Assembly: GCA_030616475.1 (NCBI GenBank)
Contig: JAUWXF010000002.1
Span: 18 to 64,017, forward strand
DNA from: Desulfobacterales bacterium
Lineage (GTDB): Bacteria > Desulfobacterota > Desulfobacteria > Desulfobacterales > C00003060
DNA: 64,000 nucleotides
Reading direction: 5' to 3'
The notes beneath the pieces were generated by a model. The model made no database searches. It was given only the letters and a program-made list of their open reading frames with translations, and was not told the origin of the DNA. Numbering within the stretch: position 1 is the first letter of the stretch; each line of letters starts with the position of its first letter. This document shows, one piece after another, positions 8,789-34,164 of this stretch. The translations under genes and the position numbers were made by a program.

Positions 8789-8809
8789 CCTTACTAAAGG
8801 GTGCCGTGA

Positions 8810-10756: not shown

Positions 10757-10766
10757 TCGGATCATT

Positions 10767-11906: not shown

Positions 11907-11918
11907 GGCGGTTCCACT

Positions 11919-13865: not shown

Positions 13866-13888
13866 TTCCGATTCATAGGAAAGCAGAA

Positions 13889-16458: not shown

Positions 16459-16524
16459 ACGCGATATCAGCGACATTCCCAAAGTGTGCTTTGGGCAAAT
16501 TCTCTTATCTGCAAAACATTGAGG
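16443..16524 (+). other. degenerate attC-like site candidate
   Basis: GGCTAAA-A-GCAGGTAA ... TTATCTGC-AAAAC-ATTGAGG. The stem plus 5-nt bulge layout matches sites a-e, and the sequence is strikingly similar to site d. The outer TAAC/GTTA boxes are not conserved. It overlaps the stop codon of the preceding gene, as site d does. Confidence 0.3.
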
Positions 16525-18423: not shown

Positions 18424-19640
18424 CAGCGTCCTCGGAATGCTCATACTATAATATATTTGCACCCCATTCGTTCGAACGGAATCAGGAGAACGAGTTCATT
18501 TCGAACAATATGACCATAGACTATTATTTTGGTCATAGAAAAATAGTAGAACAGTTCGCAAAGAAGCGGAAAGAATTCCTCGCCCATTATCAATCTCTAA
18601 GGAATTTATCCAATTCTGAGTTGGCAAGATATGTCGACCGTGCGCGTAAAAAAAGTGTGCTTTTGACAGTCGTTATGCTTACAGGCAAATGTGATGCGAA
18701 CTGCAAGATATGTTGTACCGATCGTACTTACAAGGATGACGAAGAGTTAAAGATCGAAGAAATTTCGCCGATTTTTAAGCAGGTAAAGAAATTGGGGTGC
18801 AAGACAATATATATACCAGGTGAGGGAGAGCCCCTTTTAGACAAGAATATTTGGAACATTCTTGATCTATCGAGACAAATGAAATTCAATGTGATTATTT
18901 TTACAAATGGCATAATTCTTTCAAATAATAATCTTGCTAGAAACCAATGGGGAATGACAAGTGAAGAGGTCGTTAGAAAACTTTCTGCCTATCCAGTTTA
19001 CATATATCACAAGTTGTGGTCGACAGACGAGATGCTACTTTCTGAATTGATGCAAATACCACGCGGTATTTATTCCTTTAGCACTTTTTTCATTAATGGT
19101 AACGATAACAAAGCAAAACGAACAATTATGATACCCAAAGGTATTAGTCTGCTTTTGAAGTACTTTCCACCTGACAGGGTTGGCATTGAATCAGTCGTAA
19201 CAAAACAAAATTTTCAGGAATTAAAAAATATTATCATACCATTTATTAAACAATCTGGAATAAAGTCATATATAGAGCCATTAATACATGGTGGGCGGTG
19301 TTTGGGCATACATGACTATGATCTCGAGTCAAGCAAGCATCTTGAATTACATCCGTGGTTATGCAGACTCGGCTGTCGGAGGCTTGGCTATAAAGTGTTT
19401 ATTAGTAATGCAGGTTATGCTTCATTTGGTATACAAGTTCCACTTGAAAAGTACTTACCTGAGAGGAAACATGAATTTTCTATCCGGAACGGAAAAGGTA
19501 AGGTTAAAGATATCTATAATCTGGTTCATTCAAATGAATTATTGGTTAGGGGAAGATATGCAATGAACGGCTGTTTATGTGAAAAAATCTCTGTCAATAT
19601 TGAGAAACATGGGTTTTCGGAGTTTCTTAGAGATGGTTGA
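18420..19640 (+). CDS. radical SAM enzyme
   Basis: 406 aa with CDANCKIC (CxxxCxxC) and GEGEPLL. There are additional C-terminal cysteines. Its ATG overlaps the stop of the binding-protein gene (ATGA). Confidence 0.8.
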   Translation: MTASSECSYYNIFAPHSFERNQENEFISNNMTIDYYFGHRKIVEQFAKKRKEFLAHYQSLRNLSNSELARYVDRARKKSVLLTVVMLTGKCDANCKICCTDRTYKDDEELKIEEISPIFKQVKKLGCKTIYIPGEGEPLLDKNIWNILDLSRQMKFNVIIFTNGIILSNNNLARNQWGMTSEEVVRKLSAYPVYIYHKLWSTDEMLLSELMQIPRGIYSFSTFFINGNDNKAKRTIMIPKGISLLLKYFPPDRVGIESVVTKQNFQELKNIIIPFIKQSGIKSYIEPLIHGGRCLGIHDYDLESSKHLELHPWLCRLGCRRLGYKVFISNAGYASFGIQVPLEKYLPERKHEFSIRNGKGKVKDIYNLVHSNELLVRGRYAMNGCLCEKISVNIEKHGFSEFLRDG

Positions 19641-20346
19641 CAAAACTGAACGCGATAAAGTTGAAGAAAATTTTGTGGTTAGAGCCTTGAAATATTTTGG
19701 CTTATTCTTGTTAATGCTTCTCTCTGTTTTGATTATTTATAAAATAGTTATAGGAACGAATTTAATCAATGATTTGAGAGGGAGGTCTTATATTATACTT
19801 CCCGTTGCACCCGTTACACCGGAAGAAATACTCTCACAAACGCAAAACATAATATCGTTTGTGGCTGTTGTAATTGCTTTAGTTTCAATTGCTGTAGGCT
19901 CAATCTTCTGGCATGTGAGAAAGAAAATAGAAAAGTTTGAACAAATTGAGGAGCGTTTCTCAACAATGAATCGTACGTTGTTAATTGCAATGGAAACAGC
20001 TATTTTGGGGCTTCCAAAGTTTGATGAATCACAACATATTCCTCTAAAGTGTGCAGAGATTGCCTGTGAAATCGACAGGATTTTTCAGAATCATCCTGAG
20101 CTTGAACAGGAAATTGATAAAATCGGCAATGGCGCAAAGTTGAGGTTAGTAAGATCTCTTCACTACTTTGCATTTGGCGATTATAAGAAATGTATCGGAT
20201 ATTTAACGGAAATTGTGGATAATAACCTTGGTGATATGGATGCCAGAAGAAATGCATGCTATTGGTTGGGAATAGCATATAGGCAAAGAGGTGATTATGG
20301 GCTTTCTGCAAAATACTTTTCTGAGATGGAAAATTACCGATGTTAA
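19633..20346 (+). CDS. membrane protein with C-terminal TPR-like repeat
   Basis: Two predicted TM helices and a TPR-like CYWLGIAYRQRGDYGLSAKYF. I prefer the ATG at 19633, which overlaps the radical-SAM stop (ATGGTTGA), over the track start at 19579. Confidence 0.55.
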   Translation: MVDKTERDKVEENFVVRALKYFGLFLLMLLSVLIIYKIVIGTNLINDLRGRSYIILPVAPVTPEEILSQTQNIISFVAVVIALVSIAVGSIFWHVRKKIEKFEQIEERFSTMNRTLLIAMETAILGLPKFDESQHIPLKCAEIACEIDRIFQNHPELEQEIDKIGNGAKLRLVRSLHYFAFGDYKKCIGYLTEIVDNNLGDMDARRNACYWLGIAYRQRGDYGLSAKYFSEMENYRC

Positions 20347-21713
20347 ATGACGTCACGGCAAGAACGGGCAAACTGTTGACTTATTACAAAGCTTATAAGG
20401 TGGGTAACGTGAATTCGGAGCAGAGTCTGAAGGACACCTTTCCGGATGATAAAGTAATAAAGCAGTTTTCTGTTTCGAATGATGCGGATTTCCCGAAAAG
20501 TTATCTGAAGTTTTTGTTCGACAATATGTATTCAGTTTTTAAAGATCGTAGGAAGGACGTCCTTGTCCGATTTTATATTTGTGAGTTGATATATGATTTG
20601 CATCAAGCAGGGTATCAATTGACTGGCCATGAACATTCGCTTTTTAGAACTCTGCATAATGAGTTAATGAAGTTTGAACCTGAAGAGCATGACAAAGACA
20701 ATGCTATATTGGCGAACTACTATTTTTGCCTTGCTCTTGTATGTCGATGGTCCTTGGAGTTGGCTCTAGCGTTCGGACAGGGAATGTCAACCCTCAATTC
20801 AGAGCAAATTGCGGAGCAGCATACCCTCATCAATAAGGCGTATGATCTTTTAAAATACTCTAAGAAGTATGCTGGATTAGTGGAAAGCAAGGAAAATATT
20901 TTTTCAGAAGAAAAACTCGGTGAAGTGTCGCGTGATGAGTTCCTCAACGAAATTAAGAGGTTGGAAACTTGTTTTTCACAAAGAATATTGCCTGAAGTCG
21001 AAAAACCGAGAAAACAAAAGATAAAGGAATTGTTTAATAAGTTTGCACCAGAATATAAAAACCATGAGGAAGAGACGAAGCATATTGACGCCCAACGTAA
21101 AGTATTGATTACCATTTTCCAAGAACTTGATAAGAAGCATGTTGACAAAAAAATTAAAATTTTAGATATCGCTACAGGTCCTGGTATTGTCCCATGTATT
21201 ATTTCTGAGATATATGCGATCGCAAAAATCAACAAGATTATCGCTATTGATTTTAGCAACTCAATGATTGAACAAGCGAAAAAAGAGCTTTCAAAGCTGA
21301 TCGCCGATAATAAATGTCAACTAAAAGTCTGTGACATAGAGGCATATTCCGAAATAGTTCGGTCTGAAATAAATGAAGACGATTTTGATGTGATTATATT
21401 CTCCTTTGTATTTGCATGGCTCTCAGATCGGGAGAGAGCTCTTCAGAACATCGATAAACTGCTGAAAAAGAGTGGAAATATAATCATATTAGAGGAGTTT
21501 TTCAAAATTGGGCAGAATAAGCCTATCTTTTCGCAAAAAGCCGAAGAACTCTCTTTTATGAATGAGCTTGCAAAACTATACGATCATATTCCGATATTCG
21601 AAATCATTGAGCTTGCGAGAAAGTATAATTTTGAACAAAAGTCCGGTCATTTTTATTCGGCTAAAATCGATGATGTACACGATGTAGTAGGACTATTTTT
21701 TCATCGGGCTTGA
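20340..21713 (+). CDS. helical N-terminal domain fused to a class I SAM-dependent methyltransferase
   Basis: 457 aa. The C-terminal half has ILDIATGPGIV (motif I), AIDFSNSMI and FDVIIFSFVFAWL...SGNIIILE. Confidence 0.7.
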   Translation: MLNDVTARTGKLLTYYKAYKVGNVNSEQSLKDTFPDDKVIKQFSVSNDADFPKSYLKFLFDNMYSVFKDRRKDVLVRFYICELIYDLHQAGYQLTGHEHSLFRTLHNELMKFEPEEHDKDNAILANYYFCLALVCRWSLELALAFGQGMSTLNSEQIAEQHTLINKAYDLLKYSKKYAGLVESKENIFSEEKLGEVSRDEFLNEIKRLETCFSQRILPEVEKPRKQKIKELFNKFAPEYKNHEEETKHIDAQRKVLITIFQELDKKHVDKKIKILDIATGPGIVPCIISEIYAIAKINKIIAIDFSNSMIEQAKKELSKLIADNKCQLKVCDIEAYSEIVRSEINEDDFDVIIFSFVFAWLSDRERALQNIDKLLKKSGNIIILEEFFKIGQNKPIFSQKAEELSFMNELAKLYDHIPIFEIIELARKYNFEQKSGHFYSAKIDDVHDVVGLFFHRA

Positions 21714-21744
21714 AGAAATTTTTTGGGTTTCACAAGGAGGTATA

Positions 21745-21852
21745 ATGCTTCTGAATCTGTATGTACATAGGGGTTGTTACCTCGAAGCACTAATAGGGAA
21801 GGGTAACTCCAGTCGCCCAGAGTTACCCTTTAAGAAAACCACTTGCCCCTGA
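21745..21852 (+). CDS. speculative 35-aa ORF (MLLNLYVHRGCYLEALIGKGNSSRPELPFKKTTCP)
   Basis: It is preceded by AAGGAGG 4 nt upstream of the ATG. The same bases also read as a TATAAT box. The ORF contains a perfect 9-bp hairpin (GGGTAACTC...GAGTTACCC). Confidence 0.2.
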   Translation: MLLNLYVHRGCYLEALIGKGNSSRPELPFKKTTCP

Positions 21853-21928
21853 CGAGGAGGAGCAGCGGGACATCCTTAAATAAATTCAGTTTTAGCCGCA
21901 CTAACTTATTCGCTTAAGGAGAAGGCCT

Positions 21929-22807
21929 TTGCTCCCGCAACTAATATTGAATGGCATAATCGCAGGCAGCATTTACGCTGTTATTGCTATTGGCTTTACC
22001 GTCATATATCGCACTGTAAAGTTTTTTCACTTTGCCCACGGTGTGGTTTATACGATTGGAGCATATTTCGCTTATACTCTGATTATCTCATTACACTTCA
22101 ATCTTATCCTTTCTTTTTTTTTGTCCATAGTCCTGGCTGCCCTTCTTGGCATTGCTATTGACAGATCTGTCTATTATCCCCTCCGACAACAGAATGCATC
22201 CAACCTGATCTTTCTCCTCGCCTCTTTCGGCGTCTTTATTTTCCTTCAGAACCTGATCCAACTTATCTATGGAGCACAGATTCTTACAATAAGAACTGGT
22301 CCTATCAAAGAAGGACATCATTTCTACGGAGCAGTGATTACTGATATACAGATTTTGATTTTAGTGGTCTCGATCATTCTTATGATATTTCTGTGGCTTT
22401 TTATCCAGAAGACGAAACTCGGTAAGGCAATGAGGGCTGTGGCTGACGATCCCGTGGCAGCAAATGTTGTTGGTATAAATCCCGAAAGGATAATCCGAAC
22501 TTCATTTGCCATAGGCTCAGCATTGGCCGGTGCTGCTGGGATACTTATATCTTTTGAAACCAATATTGAACCTACCATGGGATTCAGTGCCCTCTTGAAG
22601 GGAATTATTGCCTCTATTATTGGTGGCATCGGTAGTATTCCAGGCGCAGTACTGGGGGGATTCTTTCTAGGATTAGCTGAGAACCTTGGCATCTGGAAGA
22701 TATCAGCCGGATGGAAGGATTGTATAGCATTTCTTATTCTCATAATTTTCCTTTTGATAAGACCATGGGGGTTCTTGGGCACTAAAACTGAAAAGGAAAC
22801 AATTTAA
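21929..22807 (+). CDS. livH: branched-chain amino acid ABC transporter permease
   Basis: 292 aa, polytopic, LivH-type sequence. It has a TTG start with an AAGGAGAAGG RBS. Confidence 0.88.
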   Translation: MLPQLILNGIIAGSIYAVIAIGFTVIYRTVKFFHFAHGVVYTIGAYFAYTLIISLHFNLILSFFLSIVLAALLGIAIDRSVYYPLRQQNASNLIFLLASFGVFIFLQNLIQLIYGAQILTIRTGPIKEGHHFYGAVITDIQILILVVSIILMIFLWLFIQKTKLGKAMRAVADDPVAANVVGINPERIIRTSFAIGSALAGAAGILISFETNIEPTMGFSALLKGIIASIIGGIGSIPGAVLGGFFLGLAENLGIWKISAGWKDCIAFLILIIFLLIRPWGFLGTKTEKETI

Positions 22808-22812
22808 GCCTC

Positions 22813-23682
22813 ATGGACTATCTCTTACATATCCTTGTTATTGCCGGGATATACATAATTCTCACATTGAGTCTGAATCTCATTGTGGGGTATACAGGAT
22901 TACCTGCGCTGGGGCATGCAGCCTTTTCTTGCATAGGTGCATATACATCAAGTCTGCTGGCATTAAATATGGGCTTGTCTCCATGGATAGGGTTATTGAT
23001 AGGGGCCTGTGTGGCGGCATTATCGGGGATAATCATAGGATATCCAGCGGTCCGACTAAGGGGAGACTATCTTGCCCTGGCAACATTCGGTTTGGGAGTT
23101 ATCGTGTATTCCATTGCCAAAAACTGGGTATCTCTCACAAGAGGGCCAATGGGGCTTCCAGGAATACCCGGCTTCTCAGTATTAGGTTTTCAGTTGTCAG
23201 AAATTTGGTCTTACCTGTTGCTGGTTCTATTTTTCGTGATAGTCACCGTCTTTGCTATCAAAAGAATAGTAAATTCTCCCTTTGGCAGAATACTGAGGTC
23301 TATCCGGGAAGATGAGATTGCTTCAGAGGCCTTGGGGAAGGATACAACCAGGCACAAACTACTGGTGTTCATCATAGGGGCATTCTTTGCCGGTATCGCA
23401 GGAAGCCTTTATGCTCATTACATAACCTTTATCGATCCATCGAGTTTTACTGTAATGGAATCTATCACCATTCTCCTGATGGTTATCTTTGGAGGAATGG
23501 GGAGTATATCAGGCTCTATAGTAGGCGCGGTCATTCTGGTTGTCTTTCCTGAGCTTTTGAGATTTCTGGGAATGCCGTCATCAATTGCAGCGCCAATGAG
23601 ACAGATGATATACGGGTTGCTCCTGGTAGTTCTTATGCTCAAAAGACCTCAGGGTATAATGGGGGCATATCGGTTCAAATGA
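22813..23682 (+). CDS. livM: branched-chain amino acid ABC transporter permease
   Basis: 289 aa, polytopic, LivM-type ([13 protein letters not shown]). Confidence 0.88.
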
Positions 23683-24461
23683 GTGGTGAAATCTTGTTAG
23701 ATGTAAAAAATCTTTCTAAGGAATTCGACGGTCTTGTTGCTGTGAATAACCTTAACTTCTCTGTTCAACCGGCCAGTATAAACGCCCTGATAGGCCCTAA
23801 TGGTGCGGGTAAGACGACCGTGTTTAATATAATCTCTGGATTCTACGACTCTCAATCAGGAGATGTTTATTTTAAGAATAAAAGGATTACCAATTTGCCA
23901 CCATACAAGATAGCCAGATTAGGTATCTCACGGACATTTCAGAATATCAGGCTTTTCCCACAGATTACAGTCCTGGAGAATATGTTACTGGCAACGAAAT
24001 ATGAGAAAGGTGAGAGGCTTATATTTGCCCTTCTTCAATCAAAGATTATGAAGAATGAGGAGCAGAGGAATAGGGAGAAGGCCCTCGAATATCTTGAATT
24101 GCTGGGTCTTTCAGACAAGAAAGACGACCTTGCACAGAATCTGTCTCATGGACAGAGGCGACTGCTTGAATTGGCCAGAGCACTGGCAATGGAAGCTGAA
24201 CTATTTCTGTTGGACGAGCCAACGGCAGGGGTTTTCCCTAATATGAGGGTTGAGATACTAGATGTGCTAAAGAGCTTGAAGGCTAAAGGTAAGACGATCC
24301 TGTTCATTGAACACAATATGAAAGTAGTAACAGGAGTTTCTGATAATGTCATTGTGTTGAACTATGGTCAGAAAATTGCAGAAGGGCCACCAGAAGAGAT
24401 TACCAGAGACGAGAAGGTCATAGAAGCCTATCTTGGCAGGAGGCGAGGAAGTGCTTCTTGA
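23679..24461 (+). CDS. livG: ABC transporter ATP-binding protein (LivG type)
   Basis: Walker A is GPNGAGKTT, the signature motif is LSHGQRR and Walker B is LFLLDEP. Confidence 0.9.
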
Positions 24462-25200
24462 AGTCAGAAGCTTGACAGTATATTACGACACCGTCCTCGC
24501 TCTGGACAATATTTCTCTCACTGTTAGTGAGGGAGAAATTGTGGCAATGATAGGACCAAATGGTGCAGGCAAATCTACGGCCCTAAAAGCAATTTGCGGT
24601 TTGCTGAAGCCGCGGTCAGGAGAGATCTTATTTCAAGGGGAAAATATAAATGACAAACAGCCATACCAGTTGGTTGAGAAAGGGCTTTGTCTCGTGCCAG
24701 AAGGGAGGCGAGTCTTTACTTCAATGACTGTTTCAGAGAATCTTGAAATGGGAGCCTATACAGTTTCCAGTGGTCAGTTCTCAGCGCTCAGAAGAAGAAA
24801 CCGACAACCGAGGACTGACATCAGGCACCTTTTAGACAAGGTATTCGTGTTATTCCCGGTGCTTAAAGAAAGACGAAAACAGAGAGCAGCAACGTTAAGC
24901 AGTGGCGAGCAACAGATGCTCGCCATTGGCAGAGCACTGATGTTAAAACCAAAACTGCTCCTATTGGACGAACCATCACTGGGACTTTCTCCGAATTATG
25001 TGGATACTGTATTTGAAAACATAAAGCAGATTAACACAGATGGGACCACCATTCTTCTCGTGGAACAGAATGCGAGGATGGCTTTAGAATACGCAGACCG
25101 AGGCTATGTATTTGAAATAGGCAAAATTGCCTTTGAAGATAAAGCAAAAAACCTCCTTGAAAATGATGAGGTTAGAAAGTCGTTTTTGGGGGAGCATTAA
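24451..25200 (+). CDS. livF: ABC transporter ATP-binding protein (LivF type)
   Basis: Walker A is GPNGAGKST, the signature motif is LSSGEQQ and Walker B is LLLLDEP. I prefer the GTG at 24451, 7 nt after AGGAGG, over the TTG at 24433. Confidence 0.88.
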
Positions 25201-25242
25201 TAGCGCTGCAAAATGAAAAAGTTAAAAAGCGGCAGCAACTTC

Positions 25243-25320
25243 ATGTAACACGCTGTTTGTGGCTTCACTTTGTTTCGCTCAAACCGTACGGGCTTCACAA
25301 ACAGCGGAAGCGTTATCTGC
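25243..25320 (+). other. attC-like structured site a
   Basis: TGTAAC-A-CGCTGTTTGTG (25251-25261) ... CACAAACAGCG (25296-25306)-GAAGC-GTTATCTGC. Confidence 0.6.
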
Positions 25321-25354
25321 CATGCGAAATGATATAATGTGAAGGTGAGAAAGC

Positions 25355-26119
25355 GTGTCTTCTTTCTTGGTTCGCAATAGTGTCGGCACGCCGATCAATT
25401 CAGTAGAAGAGTGGTTCCACCGTGCCCCTCCGAAAAAGGGCGCTAAACAGTGGAAAGACGGGCGAAGTGCCAAAGAACTTGCCAAGGTATGGTTCAAGAC
25501 CGGAGAACCTATTATCCCTTGTGAACTCAAGGCATTACTGGACAGTCATCCTTCTACTGAAAACTTCGTCCCCTCGATTGCGGTGCCAGAAATGGTTACG
25601 CCCCTCGATGATTTCAGGGGTGAGGGGCGTAACCATGATTTGGTGTTGCTCGGCCACGTTGGGGATCGAAAGACGCTGGTGTCCATTGAGGCAAAAGCAG
25701 ATGAAACCTTCGGCGACATAATCAGCGATCGTCTGGTGCGAGCAAAGTCGTTTTCCAAAGTCCCTGACCGCATCGCCCTTTTGTCGCAAGCGCTTTGGGG
25801 TCGCTCAATCGATAAACGCCTAGGAAGAATCCGCTATCAGCTTCTCACCGGCCTGGCCGGCACACTCATCGAAGCCCGAAGGCAATCAGCTGTTCAAGCA
25901 GTTTTCGTTATTCATGAATTCATTTCGGAAGCCTTAACCCAAGATAATGTTAACCGGAACGCTGGCGACCTTGAGGCGTTCATTAGGACTTTTCCTGCAA
26001 TGGAAGAGACATCTGTACACACAGGTATCATGATTGACAAAATCGTGTTCCCGGGTGGTCCGTTTGTGCCAGGAAATATTCCGACATTGATTGGCAAAGT
26101 CGTAACGCACATTGAATGA
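25355..26119 (+). CDS. PD-(D/E)xK-fold protein, DUF6946-like
   Basis: 254 aa with a GTG start after GAAGGTGAG. HDLVLLG ... VSIEAKADE fits a D...ExK nuclease core. The N-terminal WKDGRSAKELAKVW resembles DUF6946 proteins (from memory). Confidence 0.55.
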   Translation: MSSFLVRNSVGTPINSVEEWFHRAPPKKGAKQWKDGRSAKELAKVWFKTGEPIIPCELKALLDSHPSTENFVPSIAVPEMVTPLDDFRGEGRNHDLVLLGHVGDRKTLVSIEAKADETFGDIISDRLVRAKSFSKVPDRIALLSQALWGRSIDKRLGRIRYQLLTGLAGTLIEARRQSAVQAVFVIHEFISEALTQDNVNRNAGDLEAFIRTFPAMEETSVHTGIMIDKIVFPGGPFVPGNIPTLIGKVVTHIE

Positions 26120-26137
26120 ACAGATGCATTTCGTACG

Positions 26138-26243
26138 GCGGATAACATGGCCTTACCGGCGAAGCTGTCGCTTCGCCCAAATGCCGCCTGTGTGGAAAAC
26201 ATTCGCGTGGTGGCACTTCGGTAAGGCCAGAAACGTTATCTGC
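26138..26243 (+). other. attC-like structured site b
   Basis: GCGGATAAC-A-TGGCCTTACCG (26148-26158) ... CGGTAAGGCCA (26219-26229)-GAAAC-GTTATCTGC. Confidence 0.65.
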
Positions 26244-26267
26244 TACTGCGGGCAGAGGAAGGCTTAC

Positions 26268-28037
26268 ATTATAAAAAAGTTAACGACTTTAGTAATATTG
26301 CTGGTATTCTTGTTTGTTTCTATGACACTTTTTGCACAGGAAACCGACAAAAAGAAACGAAGGGATCCTATCCAATGCTTTGAAAAGGAAGCAAAACAGC
26401 TTGGTAAGATATTGAGTACGGAACATATTGAAAAATTAATTCAACATTTCCGGGAAAATAGACCTTTAAACCGCTGGTTGAGTATAATAGAAATCAAAGA
26501 ATATATCGAGCCGCTTAAGGATAAAAATGCTTATTCCTTTTGTATCATTGCGGAGTTAATGAAACGAGTAGGAGACTACCAAGCTGAAGATTATTATAAA
26601 AAAGCTATTGGTGCGAGTCCTGACGAACCTGCATATGAATTATTTTATGCAGATTATTTACGAAACTTTAGAGGTGCGCAGCGTCCACTCTTCCCAGAGG
26701 CAGAAGAGCATTACTATAAAGCATTAAAGAAACTTGAAGAGCTAAAGCAGAAGAAACATCGGAAAGCCTTTGACGTTGAAACTCAAAGGCGAGTTGAAAG
26801 AGGGCTTATCGCGCTTTATCAACAAGACGGTCTTCCGCTTCTTTGTTGGAAGTCCGATATTATTGAACCGAAAAGGGTTCTCGAAAGACCCTTTGTTTTT
26901 TTCAGCACAATTGATAAATATGCCAAACAAACTACGGATTTTGATGAAGTAGACGATGTAAGAGACTTCACATCGGAAGCTCTCTTTGCTTCAAGTAAGA
27001 TGAGGCTGAATCGCGCCTTAACGGAAGATGAGTTAAAGAATGTTATTCGCTCGAAGAAGCAATGTGAGACCTTAAATCGACTTCGATTTCGCTACAGATA
27101 TCGGCCTGCTTTAGATATCTTCTACAGATATCGAGAAATTGATGATGCTCAGATTACTAACTTTTTCGAACCAAATAAATATAACGATGTAAACCTAAAC
27201 GAATACGGTATGGCTATAGAAAAGCCTTTAGGCTTCTCTCAATACTTTGATCTTTTTCTAAAGGGTACGTTTAAAAGAACCAAACGAGAGGGAATAATCG
27301 AATTTCTTCCTGACACCAAGGAAGACATCAATCATTTTGAAGCTAAAACAGCACTTTCCAGATTTTTTGGCCCTAACAAAGCAAATTTAGAATTAACGTA
27401 TGTATTTCAGGATATCGATCCCGATATCGCCAATCCACCAAAAAGAGATAGGCAGATATTTGCCAGTACACTTGTCCTTTTACGGCCACTTTATGAACTG
27501 CGTTTTGAGACACGAGGTTTAGAAATATTTGGCGGTATCGTCCATGATAAAGAGAAGTTTGGACATGTGGATGTTAGGAAGAATGACTATTTCGTTGGTG
27601 CTTCCCTTAAAGGTTTTGAACTTTCTGAACAACTTAATACTTTTGATGTTACTATTCAACCAACAATTTTTACTTCAGAAGTTGAAGGGGATAAATCTCA
27701 GGATAATTCTCAGTATCGGACGAATTTTACTTTGCTATATAGAATATGTGACGAAGAAAAGGTGCCAGGGATTCCAAAAAAGGTTATGGGAACATATCCA
27801 GCATTTTTACATCTGGCGATTGCTATTAGACATGATATAGCAATTGATGGTCCTAAAGATTTCGAGAGTTTTAAAGCTGGTATCGAACTTAATACGAAGT
27901 TTTTTATTAGATCATTTGGAGAAACAAAAGTTTTCGGAACAACGTTCTTGGCTTCCTTAGGATATTACTATCAGCATTTCCACAGATTGGATAGAGATTT
28001 AAATCTCTTTAGCTTTAACATAAGTATGGGTTTTTGA
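26268..28037 (+). CDS. secreted / outer-membrane-like protein (C-terminal ...FNISMGF)
   Basis: The long ORF's upstream part (26112-26243) is occupied by site b. A signal peptide, IIKKLTTLVILLVFLFVSMTLFA, begins at ATT 26268, 5 nt after GAGGAAGG. This implies a non-canonical ATT/ATA start. The terminal aromatic residue is typical of beta-barrel OMPs. Confidence 0.5.
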   Translation: MIKKLTTLVILLVFLFVSMTLFAQETDKKKRRDPIQCFEKEAKQLGKILSTEHIEKLIQHFRENRPLNRWLSIIEIKEYIEPLKDKNAYSFCIIAELMKRVGDYQAEDYYKKAIGASPDEPAYELFYADYLRNFRGAQRPLFPEAEEHYYKALKKLEELKQKKHRKAFDVETQRRVERGLIALYQQDGLPLLCWKSDIIEPKRVLERPFVFFSTIDKYAKQTTDFDEVDDVRDFTSEALFASSKMRLNRALTEDELKNVIRSKKQCETLNRLRFRYRYRPALDIFYRYREIDDAQITNFFEPNKYNDVNLNEYGMAIEKPLGFSQYFDLFLKGTFKRTKREGIIEFLPDTKEDINHFEAKTALSRFFGPNKANLELTYVFQDIDPDIANPPKRDRQIFASTLVLLRPLYELRFETRGLEIFGGIVHDKEKFGHVDVRKNDYFVGASLKGFELSEQLNTFDVTIQPTIFTSEVEGDKSQDNSQYRTNFTLLYRICDEEKVPGIPKKVMGTYPAFLHLAIAIRHDIAIDGPKDFESFKAGIELNTKFFIRSFGETKVFGTTFLASLGYYYQHFHRLDRDLNLFSFNISMGF

Positions 28038-28049
28038 TAGAGCAACATA

Positions 28050-28820
28050 GTGAAAACAGTAATAGAGACAGCACATACTTTAATGGCTTTAATAATAGCG
28101 GTGACTTCTTTAATTACAGCCCTGACTGTTCTTTTAAGAAAAATCAATGAATTTCTAAAGGGGTATAGAGAACTGGTAAATTTAATTAAGGAAGGAGGTA
28201 AACCTAAAATGACAAAACCTATAACGATTTTTTTTATTGTTACTGTTTGTCTCTTTATTGGCCTTGGAATATTAGGGATAAGGGGATTTACAGAACCAAT
28301 TCCAACCCTTCGTGCCCCGTTTGATATGACTCTATATTTCTACCCTTCAGGATGGATGGGAGATGGAGAATTAGGCACAAGACACGTCCAACTTAATACA
28401 GGTTTTTGTGAATGCCAGCGTACTGGCGATACTGACGGCATTTGCATCAAAATAAGCTACCAGCCAGGTCCAAGGGGTTGGGCAGCTATCTATTGGCAAT
28501 ATCCAGATAGTAATTGGGGTGGCCAGCCTGGAAGGAGAATTGTAGGAGCTACAAGAATTGCCTTTTGGGCAAAAGGGGAAATAGGCGGTGAAATAGTTGA
28601 ATTTAAGGCGGGAGGAATTAGTGCCCACAACAAGCCTTATCGAGACAGTTTTGAAGTTTCGCGAGGGCGTATTAATCTTACAACATATTGGACAAGGTAT
28701 GAGATTACTCTATCGGGGGAGGACCTTTCCCATGTTATAGGAGCGTTCGCATGGGTAGCGTCAAGGGATGCAAATCCTGATGGTTTGATGTTCTACATAG
28801 ATGATATTCGATATGAATAA
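28050..28820 (+). CDS. membrane-anchored hypothetical protein
   Basis: 256 aa with two N-terminal hydrophobic helices and then a beta-rich domain. It starts 12 nt after the previous stop. Confidence 0.5.
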   Translation: MKTVIETAHTLMALIIAVTSLITALTVLLRKINEFLKGYRELVNLIKEGGKPKMTKPITIFFIVTVCLFIGLGILGIRGFTEPIPTLRAPFDMTLYFYPSGWMGDGELGTRHVQLNTGFCECQRTGDTDGICIKISYQPGPRGWAAIYWQYPDSNWGGQPGRRIVGATRIAFWAKGEIGGEIVEFKAGGISAHNKPYRDSFEVSRGRINLTTYWTRYEITLSGEDLSHVIGAFAWVASRDANPDGLMFYIDDIRYE

Positions 28821-28885
28821 ACTAGCAGTCAGCTTCTACTTAACATGATGAAATGGGACGGGTCTATTTTAAAAATGCCCGCAAC

Positions 28886-28954
28886 GACAGATAACACGAT
28901 GCATGTGTGAAATGAAAAATGCTCTGCACTTCACATGCACCGAAACCGTTAGCC
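28886..28954 (+). other. attC-like structured site c
   Basis: CAGATAAC-A-CGATGCATGTG (28897-28907) ... CACATGCACCG (28932-28942)-AAACC-GTTAGCC. The stem has one mismatch. Confidence 0.6.
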
Positions 28955-29013
28955 AAAACTACGTCAGTTTTAGTAAAAATGTCGGATGTCTACCATAAAG
29001 GGTTGGAAATACG

Positions 29014-29757
29014 ATGGCAAGAGTGGTGAAACAACAAGAGAGTCTTAACTTGGCCTTCAAAAAGAGAAGAGGACTTGGATTAGGAATTATTTCTGTTGGG
29101 GCAGTTATATTATTACTTTCTTGTTCTCTTGATTTTTTGTCATCTAATGTGAGGGGTATATCGGTTTTTTTAGGAATACTGTTAGTTTCCTTTGGGGCTA
29201 GGGTGATAAGTGTAGGACGTAAGTTTAAGGTAGGAGCAGTTGGTGAAAGTCGCGTAGTTGAAGTACTGGCCAGCTTTCCGAAATATTGGTATGTATTTAA
29301 TGACATGTTTGTTGGACGCTCCCAAATTGATCACATAGTTGTTTGTCCTAAGGGTGTATATACGATAGAGACAAAGAATTACCAAGGCACTATTTATGGA
29401 AATGCTGAAAAACAAGAGTGGTCTCAGGTCATCAACTATGATTACAAAACACCATTTTATAACCCTGTAAAGCAGGGGATAGGCCACTCAGTAGCACTAA
29501 GCAAGTATCTTGAGAAAGGTGGTTTTAAGAAGATTTGGGTCAACACAATAGTGGTATTTGCTGAGCCGAGCGTTAAGCTTAAGGTGTTTTCTCCCAAAAT
29601 ACCAGTGATTTATCTATCTGAATTGAATGAGTTTTTCAACAAGCAACAACAGATTATGAACCCTGATCAATGTATTAAGATAGCTAAGTGCGTACATAAA
29701 TTAATTCATGCTAAAAGGGAAAAGGCGCATGGCGTAGCTTCGGCTAACAGCGGATAA
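29014..29757 (+). CDS. NERD (nuclease-related) domain protein with N-terminal TM helices
   Basis: 247 aa. GAVGESRVVEVLASFPKYWYVFNDMFVGRSQIDHIVVCPKGVYTIETKNYQG matches the NERD pattern (GxxGE ... DH(l/i)vv ... ExK). Confidence 0.8.
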   Translation: MARVVKQQESLNLAFKKRRGLGLGIISVGAVILLLSCSLDFLSSNVRGISVFLGILLVSFGARVISVGRKFKVGAVGESRVVEVLASFPKYWYVFNDMFVGRSQIDHIVVCPKGVYTIETKNYQGTIYGNAEKQEWSQVINYDYKTPFYNPVKQGIGHSVALSKYLEKGGFKKIWVNTIVVFAEPSVKLKVFSPKIPVIYLSELNEFFNKQQQIMNPDQCIKIAKCVHKLIHAKREKAHGVASANSG

Positions 29758-29825
29758 AAGGGAAATCAAAGATTTCCCCAAATTGCCCTGCGGGCAACTT
29801 CTTTTATCCGCAAAACGTTATACGC
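29742..29825 (+). other. attC-like structured site d
   Basis: GGCTAAC-A-GCGGATAAAAG (29750-29760) ... CTTTTATCCGC (29801-29811)-AAAAC-GTTATACGC. The 11-bp stem is perfect and the loop holds two small hairpins. The site overlaps the NERD stop codon. Confidence 0.7.
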
Positions 29826-29867
29826 AATCGGACTTCGGCGGATAGACCATAAATATGAAATCAAGAG

Positions 29868-30965
29868 GTGGACGCTATGGTAAAAGACGAAGAAAAGCGC
29901 AAAACAACATTTCATAGAATAAGCAAAAAATGGAGAGAAAGCGTAGATAAAGTTAAAGAGTACGAGGTTGTTGAGGGTGAGGAAAAGATTTCTGAAGAAT
30001 TTATACCATTTGGTATCGATTATCAAGAGTACCAGGAAGCAGAAAAATTAAAACAGAGGCTGCTGAAGAAGTATAAAGGTAAGACATTGGAAGATGTAAT
30101 CGAAGGTAAGGAACTTAACACTAAAGAAGGCGTATGTTATTATATAGAAAATCAAGACAGATTAAGCTTAAAGATAATTAATCCAGAGCATGCAAGAAAG
30201 AAAATTCTATCAGATCTAAAATTAATTTACGGGATAGGAGAAGTAACAGAGCGGATTTTGAAAGAAGAGGGATGTAAAACAATTGAGGATCTTACGGAAC
30301 ATCCTCGTTTTGGTTCTCAAGCTATAGAGTTTTTAAAAATCCTTGACAAATGCGATACTTGCCAAATTGTTGACTGGATCGCACATTGGTTTCCAAAATC
30401 TCATCCATTAATCCTATATTCTTCGAGTTTCCACAACAAAGGGGACCTTATCATTTTTGATATAGAAACCATGGGGCTTTTTACTAGGCCTATTATATTG
30501 TTTGGTGTTGCCCGAATTTCTGGTGACCAGATATTGATAAACCAATATCTCTTACGCAACATAAAAGAAGAACCTGCAGCTCTAAAGGGCTTTTTATCCC
30601 ATATTAGTGAGGATAGTGTCTTTATAACATTCAATGGTCGAACCTTTGATATACCTTATGTTAGACAGAGGTTAGCGTATTATAGAATGAAAGGAGACCT
30701 TGAGAGGCCACACTTTGATATACTTCATTTTTCAAGGCGTGCATGGAGAGAAAAGGTGCCCAATTGCAGATTGAACACATTAGAGAAATATTTACTCGGC
30801 ATAGCAAGGAAAGATGATGTTCCAAGTGCTTTAGTTCCGGATTTCTATGAGACATATATGAGAAGCAAAAATGTAGGACCTTTAATTCCAATAATTGAGC
30901 ATAATAAACAAGATTTAGTTACAGTTGCTATTATCTTTTCAAGACTGCATGAAGAGTGGAGATAA
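29868..30965 (+). CDS. RNase H-fold 3'-5' exonuclease, YprB/MrfB-like
   Basis: 365 aa. LIIFDIETMGL ... FNGRTFDIPY ... HNKQD are DnaQ-like ExoI/II/III motifs. It overlaps the following helicase gene by 10 nt. Confidence 0.7.
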   Translation: MDAMVKDEEKRKTTFHRISKKWRESVDKVKEYEVVEGEEKISEEFIPFGIDYQEYQEAEKLKQRLLKKYKGKTLEDVIEGKELNTKEGVCYYIENQDRLSLKIINPEHARKKILSDLKLIYGIGEVTERILKEEGCKTIEDLTEHPRFGSQAIEFLKILDKCDTCQIVDWIAHWFPKSHPLILYSSSFHNKGDLIIFDIETMGLFTRPIILFGVARISGDQILINQYLLRNIKEEPAALKGFLSHISEDSVFITFNGRTFDIPYVRQRLAYYRMKGDLERPHFDILHFSRRAWREKVPNCRLNTLEKYLLGIARKDDVPSALVPDFYETYMRSKNVGPLIPIIEHNKQDLVTVAIIFSRLHEEWR

Positions 30966-33313
30966 TGGTAGAAAGAATAGTAAGTGCCTTAGAAAGGAAT
31001 TCACGATATAAGAACCGTGTGGAACATATTGAGATCTTGTCACCTAAGGAGCCTACTTTTGGAAAACTGAAAAAAGATCTATCGCGCAACATTAAGAATT
31101 ACCTCTTAAAAAAGGGCATTAAACTCTATAAGCATCAATGCGGTGCAATTGAGTACCTGAGAGCAGGAAAAAGCATTGTCATAACAACACCCACAGCATC
31201 GGGGAAAACGCTTGCCTTCAACGTCCCAATCTTTGAGAGATTGGACCAAGATAAGAGTGCTACTGCACTTTATCTTTATCCCACAAAGGCACTCGCCAAT
31301 GACCAATTAAAAGTAATAAAAGAGTTTGATAGCCTAAGTGGAATAGGTGTAAATCCAAATGTATATGATGGCGACACACCACCCAATAAAAGACCAAAAA
31401 TTAGAGAGACTTCGAGAATAATAATAAGCAATCCCTATCAACTACATCAGGTCTTGGCCTGGCATTATAAATGGCAAAAATTCCTCAGTAATTTGAAGTT
31501 TGTTGTGATAGATGAGGCACATCGGTATAGAGGTGTTTTTGGTTCAAATGTAGCATTTTTAATTAGAAGGTTACGGAGGATATGTGGCTTCTATGGCTCC
31601 GAACCCCAATTTATCCTATCGACTGCTACACTTGCTAATCCAATCGAATTTAGTGAAAGGTTAATTGGGGTTAGATTCAAGCTAATTGCCAATGATGGAT
31701 CACCTAAGGGAAAGAAATACTTCATTTTCTACAATCCCTATTTTGATGGTATTAGCACGCTATCCACTCATCAAGAGACAAAGGATTTATTCCTATTTTT
31801 TGTAAGAAAAGATCTTCAGACGTTGTGTTTCACACTGTCTAGGAAAATGGCAGAATTAATCGCATTATGGTCGAAGAAAGGGGTTAAAGAATCCGAACCA
31901 TACCTTATGGACAAAATTACTGCGTATAGAGCGGGCTATCTTCCAGAGGAAAGAAGAGAAATAGAGAACAATTTAAAAAACGGGATTTTAAGAGGTGTAA
32001 CCTCCACTAATGCTTTAGAGTTGGGAATCGATGTTGGTTCATTAGACAGCGTAGTAATTTCAGGTTACCCAGGAACGATTATATCAACGTGGCAACAAGC
32101 AGGAAGGGCGGGAAGAGGGGTTAGCGAGTCTGTTGCAACTTTAGTTGCTTTCCAAAATCCTTTAGATCAATATCTTATGAAGCATCCGAAGCTTTTCTTT
32201 GACAAACCTCATGAGCACGCAATAATTGATTTATCAAATCCTTATATAATCTCCGGACACTTGATGTGTGCTGGATCAGAGACGCCAATTAAATTGTCAG
32301 AAGAAGGGATATATTTTGGAGATGATGTTGAAGACATTTTAAAGGCATTAGAAAGAGAGGGTTTAATTCAGAATACACCAAATGGTTGGGTTTATTCAGG
32401 GAAAGGGAGAGCTACGGAGGCTGTTAGTTTAGATAACATTTCTTCAGACATATTTAAGGTCATTTGTGATGGGGAATTACTTGAGACAATGGATAGAAGA
32501 CAAGCATATAGAGAAGCGCATAAGGGGGCAGTTTTACTTCATCAAGGGGAAACATATATTGTGGAAGATTTAGATTTGAAGAAGTCTGTTATTCAAGTTA
32601 AAAAGATAGATGTAGATTACTACACAGAGGCTATGAAAGTTGTGGATATAGAGATTTTAGAAGAGATTGAAAAGAAAGGAATTGGCAACTTTGCTGTTTC
32701 GTTTGGTGATGTGGAAGCAAACGAGCAGTACGTTGGATACAAAATAATGAAATATGACAAAGTAATAGGAATGGAAAAACTCGATTTACCACCATTAAAC
32801 TTTAAAACAATGGGATTATGGTTTACCGTGCCAGAAGACACAAAAGAAAAAATATGGAAGAAAAGGAAGGAAGACGGAGATATTAAAGAAAATTTGAATA
32901 AAAGATCGGAAGAAGACTTAAAGAGAGGGGTGTTTGCCGGTGGGCTTCATGGTATTGAACACGCAATGATTGGAATAATGCCTTTTCATGTTATGTGTGA
33001 TCGATGGGATATAGGAGGTGTATCTGCGCCAAATCATCCAGATACAATGAAACCAACAGTCTTTATCTACGATGGTTTTGAGGGTGGAATTGGATTAACC
33101 GAGAAAGCTTTTGAATTGATTGTAGAAATAGTCAAAATGACCCTCGAACTTGTGAGAGACTGTAAATGTGAAGATGGTTGTCCTGCATGTATATATTCTC
33201 CCAAGTGTGGAAATGAGAATAAACCTTTGGATAAGAAAGCAACCATATTGATATTGGAGGAGTTACTTAATCTCATGAAGCAAGAAGATAAAATTAAGGT
33301 GAGGGGTCGATGA
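30956..33313 (+). CDS. DEAD/DEAH-box helicase with C-terminal DUF1998 zinc module, YprA/MrfA-like
   Basis: 785 aa. It has TPTASGKT (Walker A), VIDEAH, QQAGRAGR and a C-terminal CKCEDGCPACIYSPKCGNEN four-Cys module. Confidence 0.85.
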   Translation: MEIMVERIVSALERNSRYKNRVEHIEILSPKEPTFGKLKKDLSRNIKNYLLKKGIKLYKHQCGAIEYLRAGKSIVITTPTASGKTLAFNVPIFERLDQDKSATALYLYPTKALANDQLKVIKEFDSLSGIGVNPNVYDGDTPPNKRPKIRETSRIIISNPYQLHQVLAWHYKWQKFLSNLKFVVIDEAHRYRGVFGSNVAFLIRRLRRICGFYGSEPQFILSTATLANPIEFSERLIGVRFKLIANDGSPKGKKYFIFYNPYFDGISTLSTHQETKDLFLFFVRKDLQTLCFTLSRKMAELIALWSKKGVKESEPYLMDKITAYRAGYLPEERREIENNLKNGILRGVTSTNALELGIDVGSLDSVVISGYPGTIISTWQQAGRAGRGVSESVATLVAFQNPLDQYLMKHPKLFFDKPHEHAIIDLSNPYIISGHLMCAGSETPIKLSEEGIYFGDDVEDILKALEREGLIQNTPNGWVYSGKGRATEAVSLDNISSDIFKVICDGELLETMDRRQAYREAHKGAVLLHQGETYIVEDLDLKKSVIQVKKIDVDYYTEAMKVVDIEILEEIEKKGIGNFAVSFGDVEANEQYVGYKIMKYDKVIGMEKLDLPPLNFKTMGLWFTVPEDTKEKIWKKRKEDGDIKENLNKRSEEDLKRGVFAGGLHGIEHAMIGIMPFHVMCDRWDIGGVSAPNHPDTMKPTVFIYDGFEGGIGLTEKAFELIVEIVKMTLELVRDCKCEDGCPACIYSPKCGNENKPLDKKATILILEELLNLMKQEDKIKVRGR

Positions 33314-33347
33314 TAGATTTATTTGGAAATCCCGCCTTCGCCCGACA

Positions 33348-33437
33348 GCGTATAACACAGCATATCTGGCTCGCACCTACGGTGCTCACCCAAATTTGCC
33401 TTCAGCAAACTTAAGATATGCTGGAAACGTTATCCGC
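33348..33437 (+). other. attC-like structured site e
   Basis: GCGTATAAC-A-CAGCATATCT (33358-33367) ... AGATATGCTG (33414-33423)-GAAAC-GTTATCCGC. Confidence 0.65.
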
Positions 33438-33473
33438 AATCGCTGCTCTGAAAATGTTATGGGAGGGTGAGCT

Positions 33474-33743
33474 ATGCCAGCTAATAAGCACAACACAACT
33501 AAGAAAAATACCGAAAAGGCGAGTGAAAAAATCCCATTTCCCCTCAAGGGTATAACGAATGGCTATGGTAGGGTTGCTACCGAGCGAGCAATCATAATCC
33601 ACACATTGGAACGTTTGAACACAGAGGTGGATCAGTATCAGCCGACAGAGTTCAAGAACACCATTGATGAGAGGAGAATAGGGTTATTTCGAGCTATTAT
33701 ACACGCGGTCATAAATAATTGCGCATTACTGGGGATTCGATGA
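33474..33743 (+). CDS. hypothetical protein
   Basis: 89-aa ORF. GGGAGGGTGAG lies upstream. Its stop overlaps the next ATG (ATGA). Confidence 0.4.
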   Translation: MPANKHNTTKKNTEKASEKIPFPLKGITNGYGRVATERAIIIHTLERLNTEVDQYQPTEFKNTIDERRIGLFRAIIHAVINNCALLGIR

Positions 33744-34015
33744 TTCAATCGTTCAGCAGCCAGCGCTTTGATGCGCAATTATTTATGACCGTCTGTATAA
33801 CTAATGAATTGCTTGCCTTTGAAGCCGATCACGTATGGATAAGCGAAAATCTGAAAACGCTTCTGGACCAGTATGCCGAACAGTGGATCGCTGTCAAGGA
33901 TGGTAAGGTGATTGCCAGTGATCCCGAGCTGGCAGGACTGCTGTCGAAGCTGCCAGACCCAGCCCACACATGCGTTGAATTCATTACCAGTGAGCCCTTG
34001 GAGATGGTGCTATGA
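33740..34015 (+). CDS. DUF5678-like small protein
   Basis: WIAVKDGKVIASDPELAGLLSKL resembles DUF5678 proteins (from memory). I chose the ATG at 33740 because it overlaps the upstream stop. Confidence 0.45.
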   Translation: MIQSFSSQRFDAQLFMTVCITNELLAFEADHVWISENLKTLLDQYAEQWIAVKDGKVIASDPELAGLLSKLPDPAHTCVEFITSEPLEMVL

Positions 34016-34134
34016 TCATTCGGGGCCGCTTCATCGGAGATGCACCATATTTTACCATTGAAATTCGGGATAATATGAGCGATCTGTATGTGGTTGAGTC
34101 CGCGTGGGGCGGAGAGGGAGCAGGTGAGAATTAG
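34012..34134 (+). pseudogene. truncated retropepsin-like aspartic protease N-terminus (40 codons)
   Basis: MIIRGRFIGDAPYFTIEIRDNMSDLYVVESAWGGEGAGEN*. The first roughly 28 residues resemble the start of clan-AA protease partners of DUF5678 genes (from memory). The reading frame ends where backbone DNA resumes, just upstream of rpe. Confidence 0.3.
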
Positions 34135-34164
34135 CCCTGTGATCGGATACGAAGGAGGACAAAG

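Follow-up and report, generated by a model that had tools for sequence, protein, structure and literature searches.

An integron in the sense of Messier and Roy 2001 is said to be marked by an integrase with an IntI-specific additional domain, the region of the I2 helix. The classical attC site has an unpaired central spacer of 5–6 nt per arm and two or three extrahelical bases on the bottom-strand L'' arm, which are read by the integrase, and its bottom strand folds on average 2.12 kcal/mol better than the top strand (Nivina et al., PMC5027507). A cluster of attC sites lacking an integron integrase is termed a CALIN (Cury et al. 2016, PMC4889954). Here we describe five attC-like sites in a stretch of 64,000 nucleotides from a Desulfobacterales bacterium (GCA_030616475.1, contig JAUWXF010000002.1; the whole stretch is hereafter called the window). 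These five sites are very probably cassette-end recombination sites, functional analogues of attC, belonging to an integron-type capture system that differs from classical integrons in both its recombinase and its sites.

The pdif modules of Acinetobacter plasmids are delimited by 28-bp duplex XerC/XerD sites in alternating orientation, with no hairpins, attI or dedicated recombinase. They resemble the present array in that gene modules are bounded by sites for Xer-family recombinases, whereas the sites here are 70–106 nt long, structured and in one orientation. Escudero et al. named a single reaction as similar to cassette recombination, the integration of CTX-phi by XerCD, in which both an I2-like domain and extrahelical bases are lacking (PMC4792948). 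There too a Xer-type enzyme that lacks an I2-like domain works on a folded single strand with no extrahelical bases in its stem, as would be the case here, but CTX-phi borrows the host XerCD to put one phage genome at dif, whereas the present system has a dedicated recombinase, its own attI-like site and many cassettes. The DUF1874 motif, a multistem structure with conserved loop nucleotides in consecutive intergenic regions, was suspected by its authors to be an unusual attC, and no integrase was found (Weinberg et al. 2017, PMC5737381). Our sites are likewise multistem, keep certain loop nucleotides and recur between consecutive genes. No Rfam family matched the array at gathering scores or at E ≤ 10, which would make it a different sequence family if the motif is in Rfam; the classical attC sites of plasmid R46, used as a positive control, are missed by Rfam too, and its silence therefore says nothing on attC membership. 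The IntI insertion has been described as 'not fully conserved' in an integron-like subgroup (Smyshlyaev et al., PMC8138268), and IntegronFinder 2.0 recorded CALINs but no complete integron in Nitrospira (PMC9024848).

The system shares with classical integrons a recombinase gene found in either orientation, an attI-like site and co-oriented cassettes that each end in a folded palindromic site, together with invariant AAC/GTT triplets, apparent exchange at the GTT, hybrid boxes, a bottom strand more stable by ~2 kcal/mol and defence-like cargo. As in sedentary integrons, site sequences cluster into families and terminal structures are branched (PMC5027507). Unlike classical integrons, its recombinase lacks the ~45-residue additional domain that defines IntI, and unlike classical attC its sites lack extrahelical bases, have a spacer of 1 versus 5 nt instead of 5–6 unpaired nt per arm, contain conserved loop linkers (CCCAAAT, ACTTC) and are bounded by 9-nt boxes of the form [T/G]C-NNN-TAAC and GTTA-NNN-G[A/C]; its cassettes reach several kb. 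A CALIN consists of two or more attC sites that lie within 4 kb of one another, away from any integron integrase. The window likewise holds at least five co-oriented sites at such spacing, with no functional recombinase within 4 kb. Unlike a CALIN, it retains a remnant of the cognate recombinase 17 kb upstream, and its sites are scored by a model of their own family, where CALINs are defined by the attC model.

The five sites, their cassettes and their family

Inspection of positions 24800–34000 recovered all five sites on the + strand, at the coordinates given by an initial annotation made from the letters of the window. They are built on a common frame: a 9-nt left box (R'') that closes with TAAC, a single A, an 11-bp stem arm whose last base is G, a loop of 20–57 nt, (A)CTT, a complementary arm starting with C, the five nucleotides RAAAC and a 9-nt right box (R') starting with GTTA. 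Measured from TAAC to GTTA, they span 25246–25315 (site a), 26143–26238 (b), 28892–28950 (c), 29745–29820 (d) and 33353–33432 (e). The stems are perfect over 10–11 bp in four of the five, that of site c having one A.C mismatch. The spacer, 1 nt (A) on the 5' arm and 5 nt (RAAAC) on the 3' arm, is the same in every window site and throughout an alignment of 51 sites from other metagenomes. This bulge had been singled out as a departure from classical attC, and so it is: all five sites have it and none has extrahelical bases (classical spacer 5–6 nt per arm, PMC5027507). Two further elements had been overlooked, namely (A)CTTC directly 5' of the 3' arm (CTTA in site e) and CCCAAAT between two sub-hairpins in sites b, d and e, for which folding predicts a three-way junction with CCCAAAT joining the two sub-hairpins. 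The inverted-repeat boxes are those of attC in that AAC and GTT are invariant (51/51 aligned and 5/5 window sites), while the purine/pyrimidine pattern of the outer attC bases is followed only in part (GCCTAAC conforms, GTATAAC does not).

A covariance model (R1) was built from the 51 non-redundant aligned sites, with zero window sequence among them. It scored all five window sites, every match on the + strand (34–76 bits, E-values 3e-16 to 5e-6), and gave a single match in 1.3 Mb of unrelated control loci. The full site signature was absent from these 1.3 Mb in a loose structural scan. The features of the five sites are as follows.

25241..25320, + strand: site a; R'' TCATGTAAC, stem CGCTGTTTGTG, R' GTTATCTGC; R1 49.6 bits
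26138..26243, + strand: site b; R'' GCGGATAAC, stem TGGCCTTACCG, R' GTTATCTGC; R1 57.3 bits; DNA fold z-score -4.4
28887..28956, + strand: site c; R'' ACAGATAAC, stem with one A.C mismatch, short loop, R' GTTAGCCAA; R1 34.3 bits, E 5e-6
29740..29825, + strand: site d; R'' TCGGCTAAC, stem GCGGATAAAAG, R' GTTATACGC; R1 76.2 bits; near-identical copies on many metagenomic contigs
33348..33437, + strand: site e; R'' GCGTATAAC, stem CAGCATATCT, R' GTTATCCGC; R1 65.7 bits; bottom-strand fold z-score -7.4

The lone control match (L014:16373-16468, 41.5 bits) lies ~5.7 kb from rpe in the genome of an uncultured bacterium and may be a genuine isolated site. A candidate from the loose scan, at 53742-53805 on the - strand of the window, was set aside as a chance match, with no support from R1.

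The outer boxes carry the signature of cassettes. When the outer 5 nt of R'' in sites b to e were compared with the R' of the previous site, 4, 4, 4 and 5 of the 5 nucleotides were complementary, against 4, 1, 2 and 4 of 5 with the site's own R'. The left box of site c (CAGATAAC) is complementary to the right box of site b (GTTATCTG), that of site d (GGCTAAC) to the right box of site c (GTTAGCC) over the whole box (7/7), and that of site e (GCGTATAAC) to the right box of site d (GTTATACGC) over 9/9 positions; sites c and d pair with their own right boxes through TAAC/GTTA only. Across the family (86 adjacent pairs among the matches listed), the left-box outer 5 nt agreed with the previous right box at a mean of 4.0/5 positions, perfectly in 40/86, and with their own R' at a mean of 2.6/5, perfectly in 2/86. 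Variant GTTG/CAAC boxes covaried in two loci (L229, L155). Judged by the box sequences, this staggering is what would be expected if crossovers fell within the GTT of right boxes and every cassette took along the outer half of the box before it. Window boxes, family boxes and the breakpoints between WOR-3 strains (described below) all place the exchange at the GTT of R'.

Four cassettes can be delimited in this way.

25313..26235, + strand: cassette 1, from the GTT of site a to the GTT of site b; DUF6946 protein at 25355-26119 (Pfam PF22187, E 3e-34)
26236..28948, + strand: cassette 2; two open reading frames (ORFs) without Pfam match, ~26268-28037 (signal-peptide-like start) and 28050-28820
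28949..29817, + strand: cassette 3; NERD nuclease-related protein at 29014-29757 (Pfam PF08378, E 2e-27)
29818..33429, + strand: cassette 4; RNase_H_2 exonuclease at 29868-30965 and DEAD/MZB helicase at 30956-33313, a MrfB/MrfA-like pair (Pfam)

All cassette ORFs lie on the + strand, start 25–58 nt past a site and end 19–66 nt before the next site or within it (the NERD ORF stops inside site d), much as the initial annotation had described. Downstream of site b, cassette 2 offers no ATG, GTG or TTG start for its first ORF; this ORF most plausibly begins at an in-frame ATT at 26268, which lies 6–7 nt past the ribosome-binding site GAGGAAGG and is followed by signal-peptide-like sequence. The helicase of cassette 4 gave PADLOC matches to DruE, SngC and BrxH-like proteins. 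By sequence similarity, the cargo of the island in which the array lies consists largely of nuclease, helicase and methyltransferase genes of the defence-island kind, and several cassettes look defence-related.

We further investigated the occurrence of these sites in other metagenomes. A scan with the frame pattern gave 39 stretches in IMG/VR, about two-thirds of them with real sites and many in dense arrays, and a pattern restricted to the 3' half gave at least 120 metagenomic contigs. Among the 118 sites ascertained by their 3' half in the matches listed, the 5' arm was complementary at 9 or more of 11 positions in 80 and perfectly so in 43 (swapped-arm control, 6). In the 51-site alignment 97% of stem positions are paired, a figure that is not independent, the sites having been chosen for pairing. 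That alignment shows changes on both sides in 9/11 stem pairs and four nearly fixed pairs (the third, G-C; the sixth, T-A; the seventh, A-T; and the eleventh, G-C). The claim that the stem sequences are unrelated thus holds only in part: most pairs vary on both sides, but four hardly vary family-wide, and many other contigs carry sites nearly identical to site d.

Similar sites elsewhere had also been called for, and R1 found 203 of them on 116 contigs among the matches listed, some beside recombinases and confined to one strand in 115/116 contigs. The longest ORF between adjacent sites was on the site strand in 81/86 pairs, and the median site spacing was 882 bp (range 65–7865; 86 pairs, again among the matches listed). 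With spacings of 817, 2643, 783 and 3522 bp, the window array is an ordinary member of the family by spacing and ORF strand. The bottom strand was predicted to be more stable in 186/202 sites, by 2.35 kcal/mol on average. Mismatch types in the 39 imperfect stems, used as a test of strand choice, were balanced (G.T 20 versus A.C 26, p = 0.46).

Recombinases, attI-like junctions and cassette exchange in relatives

Among the matches listed, 13 metagenomic contigs carried a tyrosine-recombinase match beside an array (9 full-length, 4 fragments). The recombinase gene was upstream of the first site in all 12 contigs where it could be placed, divergent in four loci (L168, L229, L204, L144) and co-directional in six (L141, L216, L180, L223, L209, L240). 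The full-length proteins that were extracted fell into two size classes (275–291 aa and ~350–400 aa, the latter with an extra N-terminal domain) and contained the domains Phage_int_SAM_4 and Phage_integrase. These enzymes presumably act on the sites.

Their best match among solved structures was VchIntIA (2a3v; E 4e-46, 161 bits), aligned in two stretches: residues 172–240 of that chain, the expected place of the IntI-specific insertion, had no counterpart. Archaeal XerA (4a8e) was almost level at 159 bits. The same gap, of ~45 residues across the ALER/I2 region, appeared in an alignment with IntI1, the sequence used being 100% identical to the annotated intI1. The NCBIfam integron-integrase model TIGR02249, also matched in two stretches, gave 213–235 in window-like loci and 149–158 in loci on AT-rich viral contigs, against a cut-off of 265, and XerA_Arch reached or exceeded its cut-off in four of the five recombinases tested. 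The additional domain was absent from all eight alignable array-linked recombinases, and the window holds no gene with it. Homologues with >60% identity, from Nitrospirota, WOR-3, Acidobacteriota, Stahlbacteria and hot-spring assemblies, are named only 'integrase', 'XerD' or 'tyrosine recombinase/integron integrase'.

In the long recombinases (L216:5111-6262, L220, P0084), the N-terminal domain of ~70–100 aa shows weak similarity to HARP (PF07443; E 0.0015, below cut-off; P0084), a domain that binds forked DNA. It is suggestive that a HARP-like domain would fit an enzyme that must read branched single-stranded DNA.

An attI-like site adjoins the recombinase gene in these relatives. Between the gene and the first site lies a 9-mer, GTTAnnnG[A/C], that is the exact reverse complement of the first R'' in six loci and agrees at 8/9 positions in four. 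It is preceded by a conserved TTCG-nATAAAAAC-GA, giving the attI-like consensus TTCG-nATAAAAAC-GA/GTTA, with the slash at the junction. These ten junction loci are joined by strain variation in the first cassette. In three WOR-3 assemblies the recombinase is identical and its chromosomal context is the same. Sequence identity between two of them, L242 and L243, extends from the recombinase gene to TATTATAAACGA and, across the junction, GTTAGGCG; beyond this the first cassettes differ, one consisting of a 75-aa ORF and a DUF5714 protein and the other of 185-aa and 76-aa ORFs. Either cassette has its own site at its end, and from the right box GTTATCTGAA onwards the two assemblies agree again. 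The ninth cassette base covaries with the cassette's own left box (GTTAGGCGA with TCGCCTAAC, GTTAGGCGT with ACGCCTAAC). Read against each other, the two sequences differ in a single cassette, exchanged precisely from the GTT of attI to that of the first site, which points to turnover at attI. The proposal of an integron-like array was thereby strengthened, by the staggered boxes of the window and the family, the attI-like junctions of relatives and one cassette swap between strains.

A group of AT-rich contigs classed as viral (L082-L120, e.g. L119:84-4276, L105:1769-4634, L114, L118, L089), some of them 120–290 kb long, carried dense arrays of up to 12 sites in 3.3 kb with the same 1/5 geometry and hybrid boxes, many sharing a conserved 89-nt site. 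These arrays adjoin recombinases of 266–270 aa, likewise without the additional domain, whose nearest annotated relatives are integrases of Cellulophaga and Polaribacter phages (38–39% identity). Unlike in the window, their cassette ORFs run opposite to the site strand and co-directionally with the recombinase.

Proposed mechanism and competing explanations

In relatives, the complete platform consists of an IntI/XerA-like tyrosine recombinase without the additional domain, an adjoining attI-like site and then cassettes that each end in a site of the present type. Exchange occurs within the invariant GTT of the right box or directly behind it. Every outer box of 9 nt is therefore a hybrid, its left half belonging to its own cassette and pairing with that cassette's first bases. 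In the mechanism we propose, the site would be recognised as a folded single strand, most likely the bottom one, as in integrons, in a predicted fold of box helix, one-sided bulge of 4–5 nt, 11-bp helix and three-way junction. The bulge and the junction may take the strand-marking role of the extrahelical bases and the I2 helix; it is at least coherent that the extrahelical bases and the domain that reads them are absent together. The recombinases found with such sites are without the IntI additional domain, and 'attC of an integron' is therefore true of these sites by mechanism and layout but not as strict family membership.

An ordinary CALIN, in which classical attC sites are served by a canonical integron integrase elsewhere in the genome and the 1/5 geometry falls within attC variation, we consider improbable. 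These sites do resemble classical attC in their AAC/GTT triplets and hybrid boxes, in ORFs that share one strand and in a folding bias towards the bottom strand (PMC5027507), and standard tools, given the CALINs without complete integrons that IntegronFinder 2.0 reports in Nitrospira (PMC9024848), may already call such sites. Against this, 0/13 array-adjacent recombinase matches (9 full-length and 4 fragments, among the matches listed) reached 265 bits, the eight that could be aligned all lacked the additional domain, and the remnant at the edge of the island described below is also of the type without it. The sites themselves have no extrahelical bases and a spacer of 1/5 nt where 5–6 nt per arm would be expected (PMC5027507), and R1 does not score the classical attC sites of plasmid R46 (best 8.9 bits).

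No better placed is the possibility that Xer-like recombinases act on duplex DNA here, as at dif, in pdif modules or in integrative mobile elements exploiting Xer, with hairpins that are incidental or serve another purpose. It would accord with recombinases that are as near to XerA (4a8e, 159 bits) as to VchIntIA (161 bits), pass the XerA_Arch cut-off and are without the domain that adapts IntI to folded single strands. The stem arms, however, vary yet keep pairing: 9/11 pairs change on both sides, and 43/118 sites among the matches listed, ascertained regardless of pairing, are perfect. Keeping pairing and not sequence, the arms are unlike a duplex binding arm, which would keep its sequence. 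The short core of two conserved arms around a 6–8 bp centre that characterises Xer/dif duplex modules was not found, the sites being 70–106 nt long with box-adjacent sequence that varies while pairing is kept. A strong strand bias in folding energy and a single site orientation, where pdif modules alternate, also speak against duplex recognition.

Least likely of all, and barely credible, are elements with no part in recombination (structured RNA at mRNA 3' ends, terminators, or repeats between genes resembling repetitive extragenic palindromes or miniature inverted-repeat transposable elements): the sites do sit just past stop codons on the coding strand, their three-way junction, with CAAAT and ACTT as conserved linkers, is reminiscent of an RNA motif, a T-rich run follows one sub-hairpin of site d and the multistem motif of Weinberg et al. 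in consecutive intergenic regions poses the same ambiguity (PMC5737381), but only 1/5 sites was flagged as terminator-like, and there merely a sub-hairpin, the non-transcribed strand folds better, no Rfam family matched at E ≤ 10, and the staggered boxes, attI junctions and exact cassette swap at GTT boxes need recombination.

Several observations weigh against an integron-type capture system at this locus. The closest rpe relative of the window lineage was only 69% identical (one genome-collection scan with Rpe as query), and evidence of activity was absent from the window's own lineage, where exact matches of the NERD and DUF6946 proteins came from only one sample, in the same gene order. 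Exact matches of the Rpe, NERD and DUF6946 proteins were found only on 1–2.4 kb contigs of one sequencing run. The choice of a single strand is suggested solely by modelled folding energies. Within the island (below), the recombinase remnant could in principle derive from another protein, only 37 residues being preserved from a domain that is weakly HARP-like; the right box of a decayed sixth site does not match the left box of site a; and neither a closing site nor a recognisable right-hand junction was found past site e.

Taking the integron-type capture system as the preferred reading, we propose more tentatively, as something slightly less probable than its contrary, that the array belongs to an undescribed sister lineage of integrons. 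Its recombinase would never have gained the I2 domain or would have lost it, and the one-sided bulge and three-way junction would replace the extrahelical bases; it would occur in uncultured Nitrospirota, WOR-3, Acidobacteriota and Desulfobacterota-like bacteria, with a related AT-rich branch on contigs classed as viral. That such a lineage is undescribed is about an even matter: no account of an integron-type system with an integrase devoid of the additional domain was found in the full-text literature, a coverage that leaves most subscription journals outside.

Definitions of integrons, and searches for them, use the IntI additional domain together with an attC model whose training sites have extrahelical bases. 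An integron-type system with neither hallmark would escape such surveys or be logged as orphan CALINs. Cassette capture in itself would not depend on the additional domain, and the Xer-like origin of integron integrases would gain a natural and directly testable point of comparison; if the sister lineage is real, it would supply a Xer-to-IntI intermediate of the kind that Escudero et al. could only postulate (PMC4792948). The known range of cassette exchange would come to include phyla, and apparently phages, in which integrons are considered rare. For the window itself, a capture system would account for a 26-kb defence-like island inside a conserved fmt-rsmB-PASTA-rpe cluster.

The 26-kb island and its surroundings

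In Desulfobacterales relatives the gene order is fmt, rsmB, PASTA-domain gene and rpe, and the last two lie 20–80 nt apart (L047, L010, L012, L006, L007). In the window they are separated by 26.2 kb with a GC content of 37–44%, compared with 50–53% in the flanks, and the array forms the distal part of this insertion. Its features, in addition to the sites and cassettes given above, are listed here.

7961..34164, no strand assigned: low-GC insertion of 26.2 kb between the PASTA-domain gene and rpe, holding the whole of what appears to be a decayed platform
8165..8275, + strand: recombinase remnant (delta-int) covering the first ~37 residues of the N-terminal domain found in array-linked tyrosine recombinases of the L216 type; the reading frame runs into a stop at 8294
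8810..16458, + strand: six co-directional genes, namely an Nmad2-methyltransferase fusion, two AAA_22 ATPases, a mad8/HerA-like protein and unknowns (Pfam; PADLOC MTase_II, mad8)
16441..16526, + strand: decayed sixth site, TAAA for TAAC and CATT for CGTT; R1 27.4 bits, E 2.7e-4, full model length
17308..25200, + strand: livK, radical SAM, unknown, methyltransferase and livHMGF genes between the decayed site and site a (Pfam), of uncertain cassette status
33438..34164, + strand: distal end of the island, with an 89-aa ORF, a 98-aa DUF5678 ORF, no closing site and a 30-nt inverted repeat

The remnant lies on the array's strand at the left edge of the island, 17 kb upstream of the array. It was detected with a profile of the N-terminal 70 residues of 113 homologues of the long recombinases (38 bits, E 1.4e-10 over the six-frame window), whose sole matches in the 2.39 Mb of loci examined were array-linked recombinases; the remnant peptide had no Pfam match at E ≤ 10. 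Beyond this remnant, no attI motif, catalytic part or further recombinase fragment was found in the window. Our reading of the locus is a co-directional platform, now without recombinase gene and attI, whose decay proceeds from the proximal end. With the recombinase reduced to a 37-residue remnant and attI not found, the four cassettes would be stranded in cis, mobile only with a cognate recombinase elsewhere in the genome.

Another broken recombinase gene, split into fragments in three frames, was seen at L209:836-1641 immediately upstream of a junction of the attI-like kind (GTTAGGCGA, agreeing at 9/9 positions with the left box of the first site); recombinase decay near arrays is thus not unique to the window.

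The block at 8810-16458 ends inside the decayed site and is possibly one large defence cassette. Its genes resemble a methylation-associated defence system. The block between the decayed site and site a measures 8.7 kb; family spacings elsewhere reach 7.9 kb. Because the right box of the decayed site is mismatched to the left box of site a, the cassette status of 8.8–25.2 kb is unproven and put forward as a hypothesis.

The inverted repeat in the distal end (33697-33800) has 30-nt arms, 93% complementary and 44 nt apart, and straddles the overlap of the 89-aa and DUF5678 ORFs. Its outer ends, (A)TTATACAC and TGTATAAC, are box-like but in reversed order relative to a site, and R1 gives it no score.

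The initial annotation had noted that no intact integrase flanks the array, which agrees with our finding that the sole intact tyrosine recombinase of the window is a P4-type integrase beside tRNA-Met, 17 kb from the array. This protein (50852-52042; 396 aa, SAM_3 and Phage_integrase domains), which abuts the tRNA-Met gene (50768-52042 together), was rejected as the array recombinase on account of ~25% identity, a different N-terminal domain and its place beside tRNA-Met. From 50768 to the end of the window, genes turn to the - strand and GC content and skew shift; the region is probably an integrated element of its own and independent of the array.

The GC skew of positions 1-51000 is positive nearly everywhere, a signal with which gene orientation is confounded. 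The + strand is probably the leading strand, and the bottom strands of the array would then lie on the leading-strand template. In sedentary chromosomal integrons, a site bottom strand on the leading-strand template is thought to limit cassette excision.

Just downstream of rpe there is a tRNA-Sec gene (35202-35299), with an AIR-synthase-related (SelD-like) gene 9 kb further on (44761-45825), and the source organism probably uses selenocysteine.

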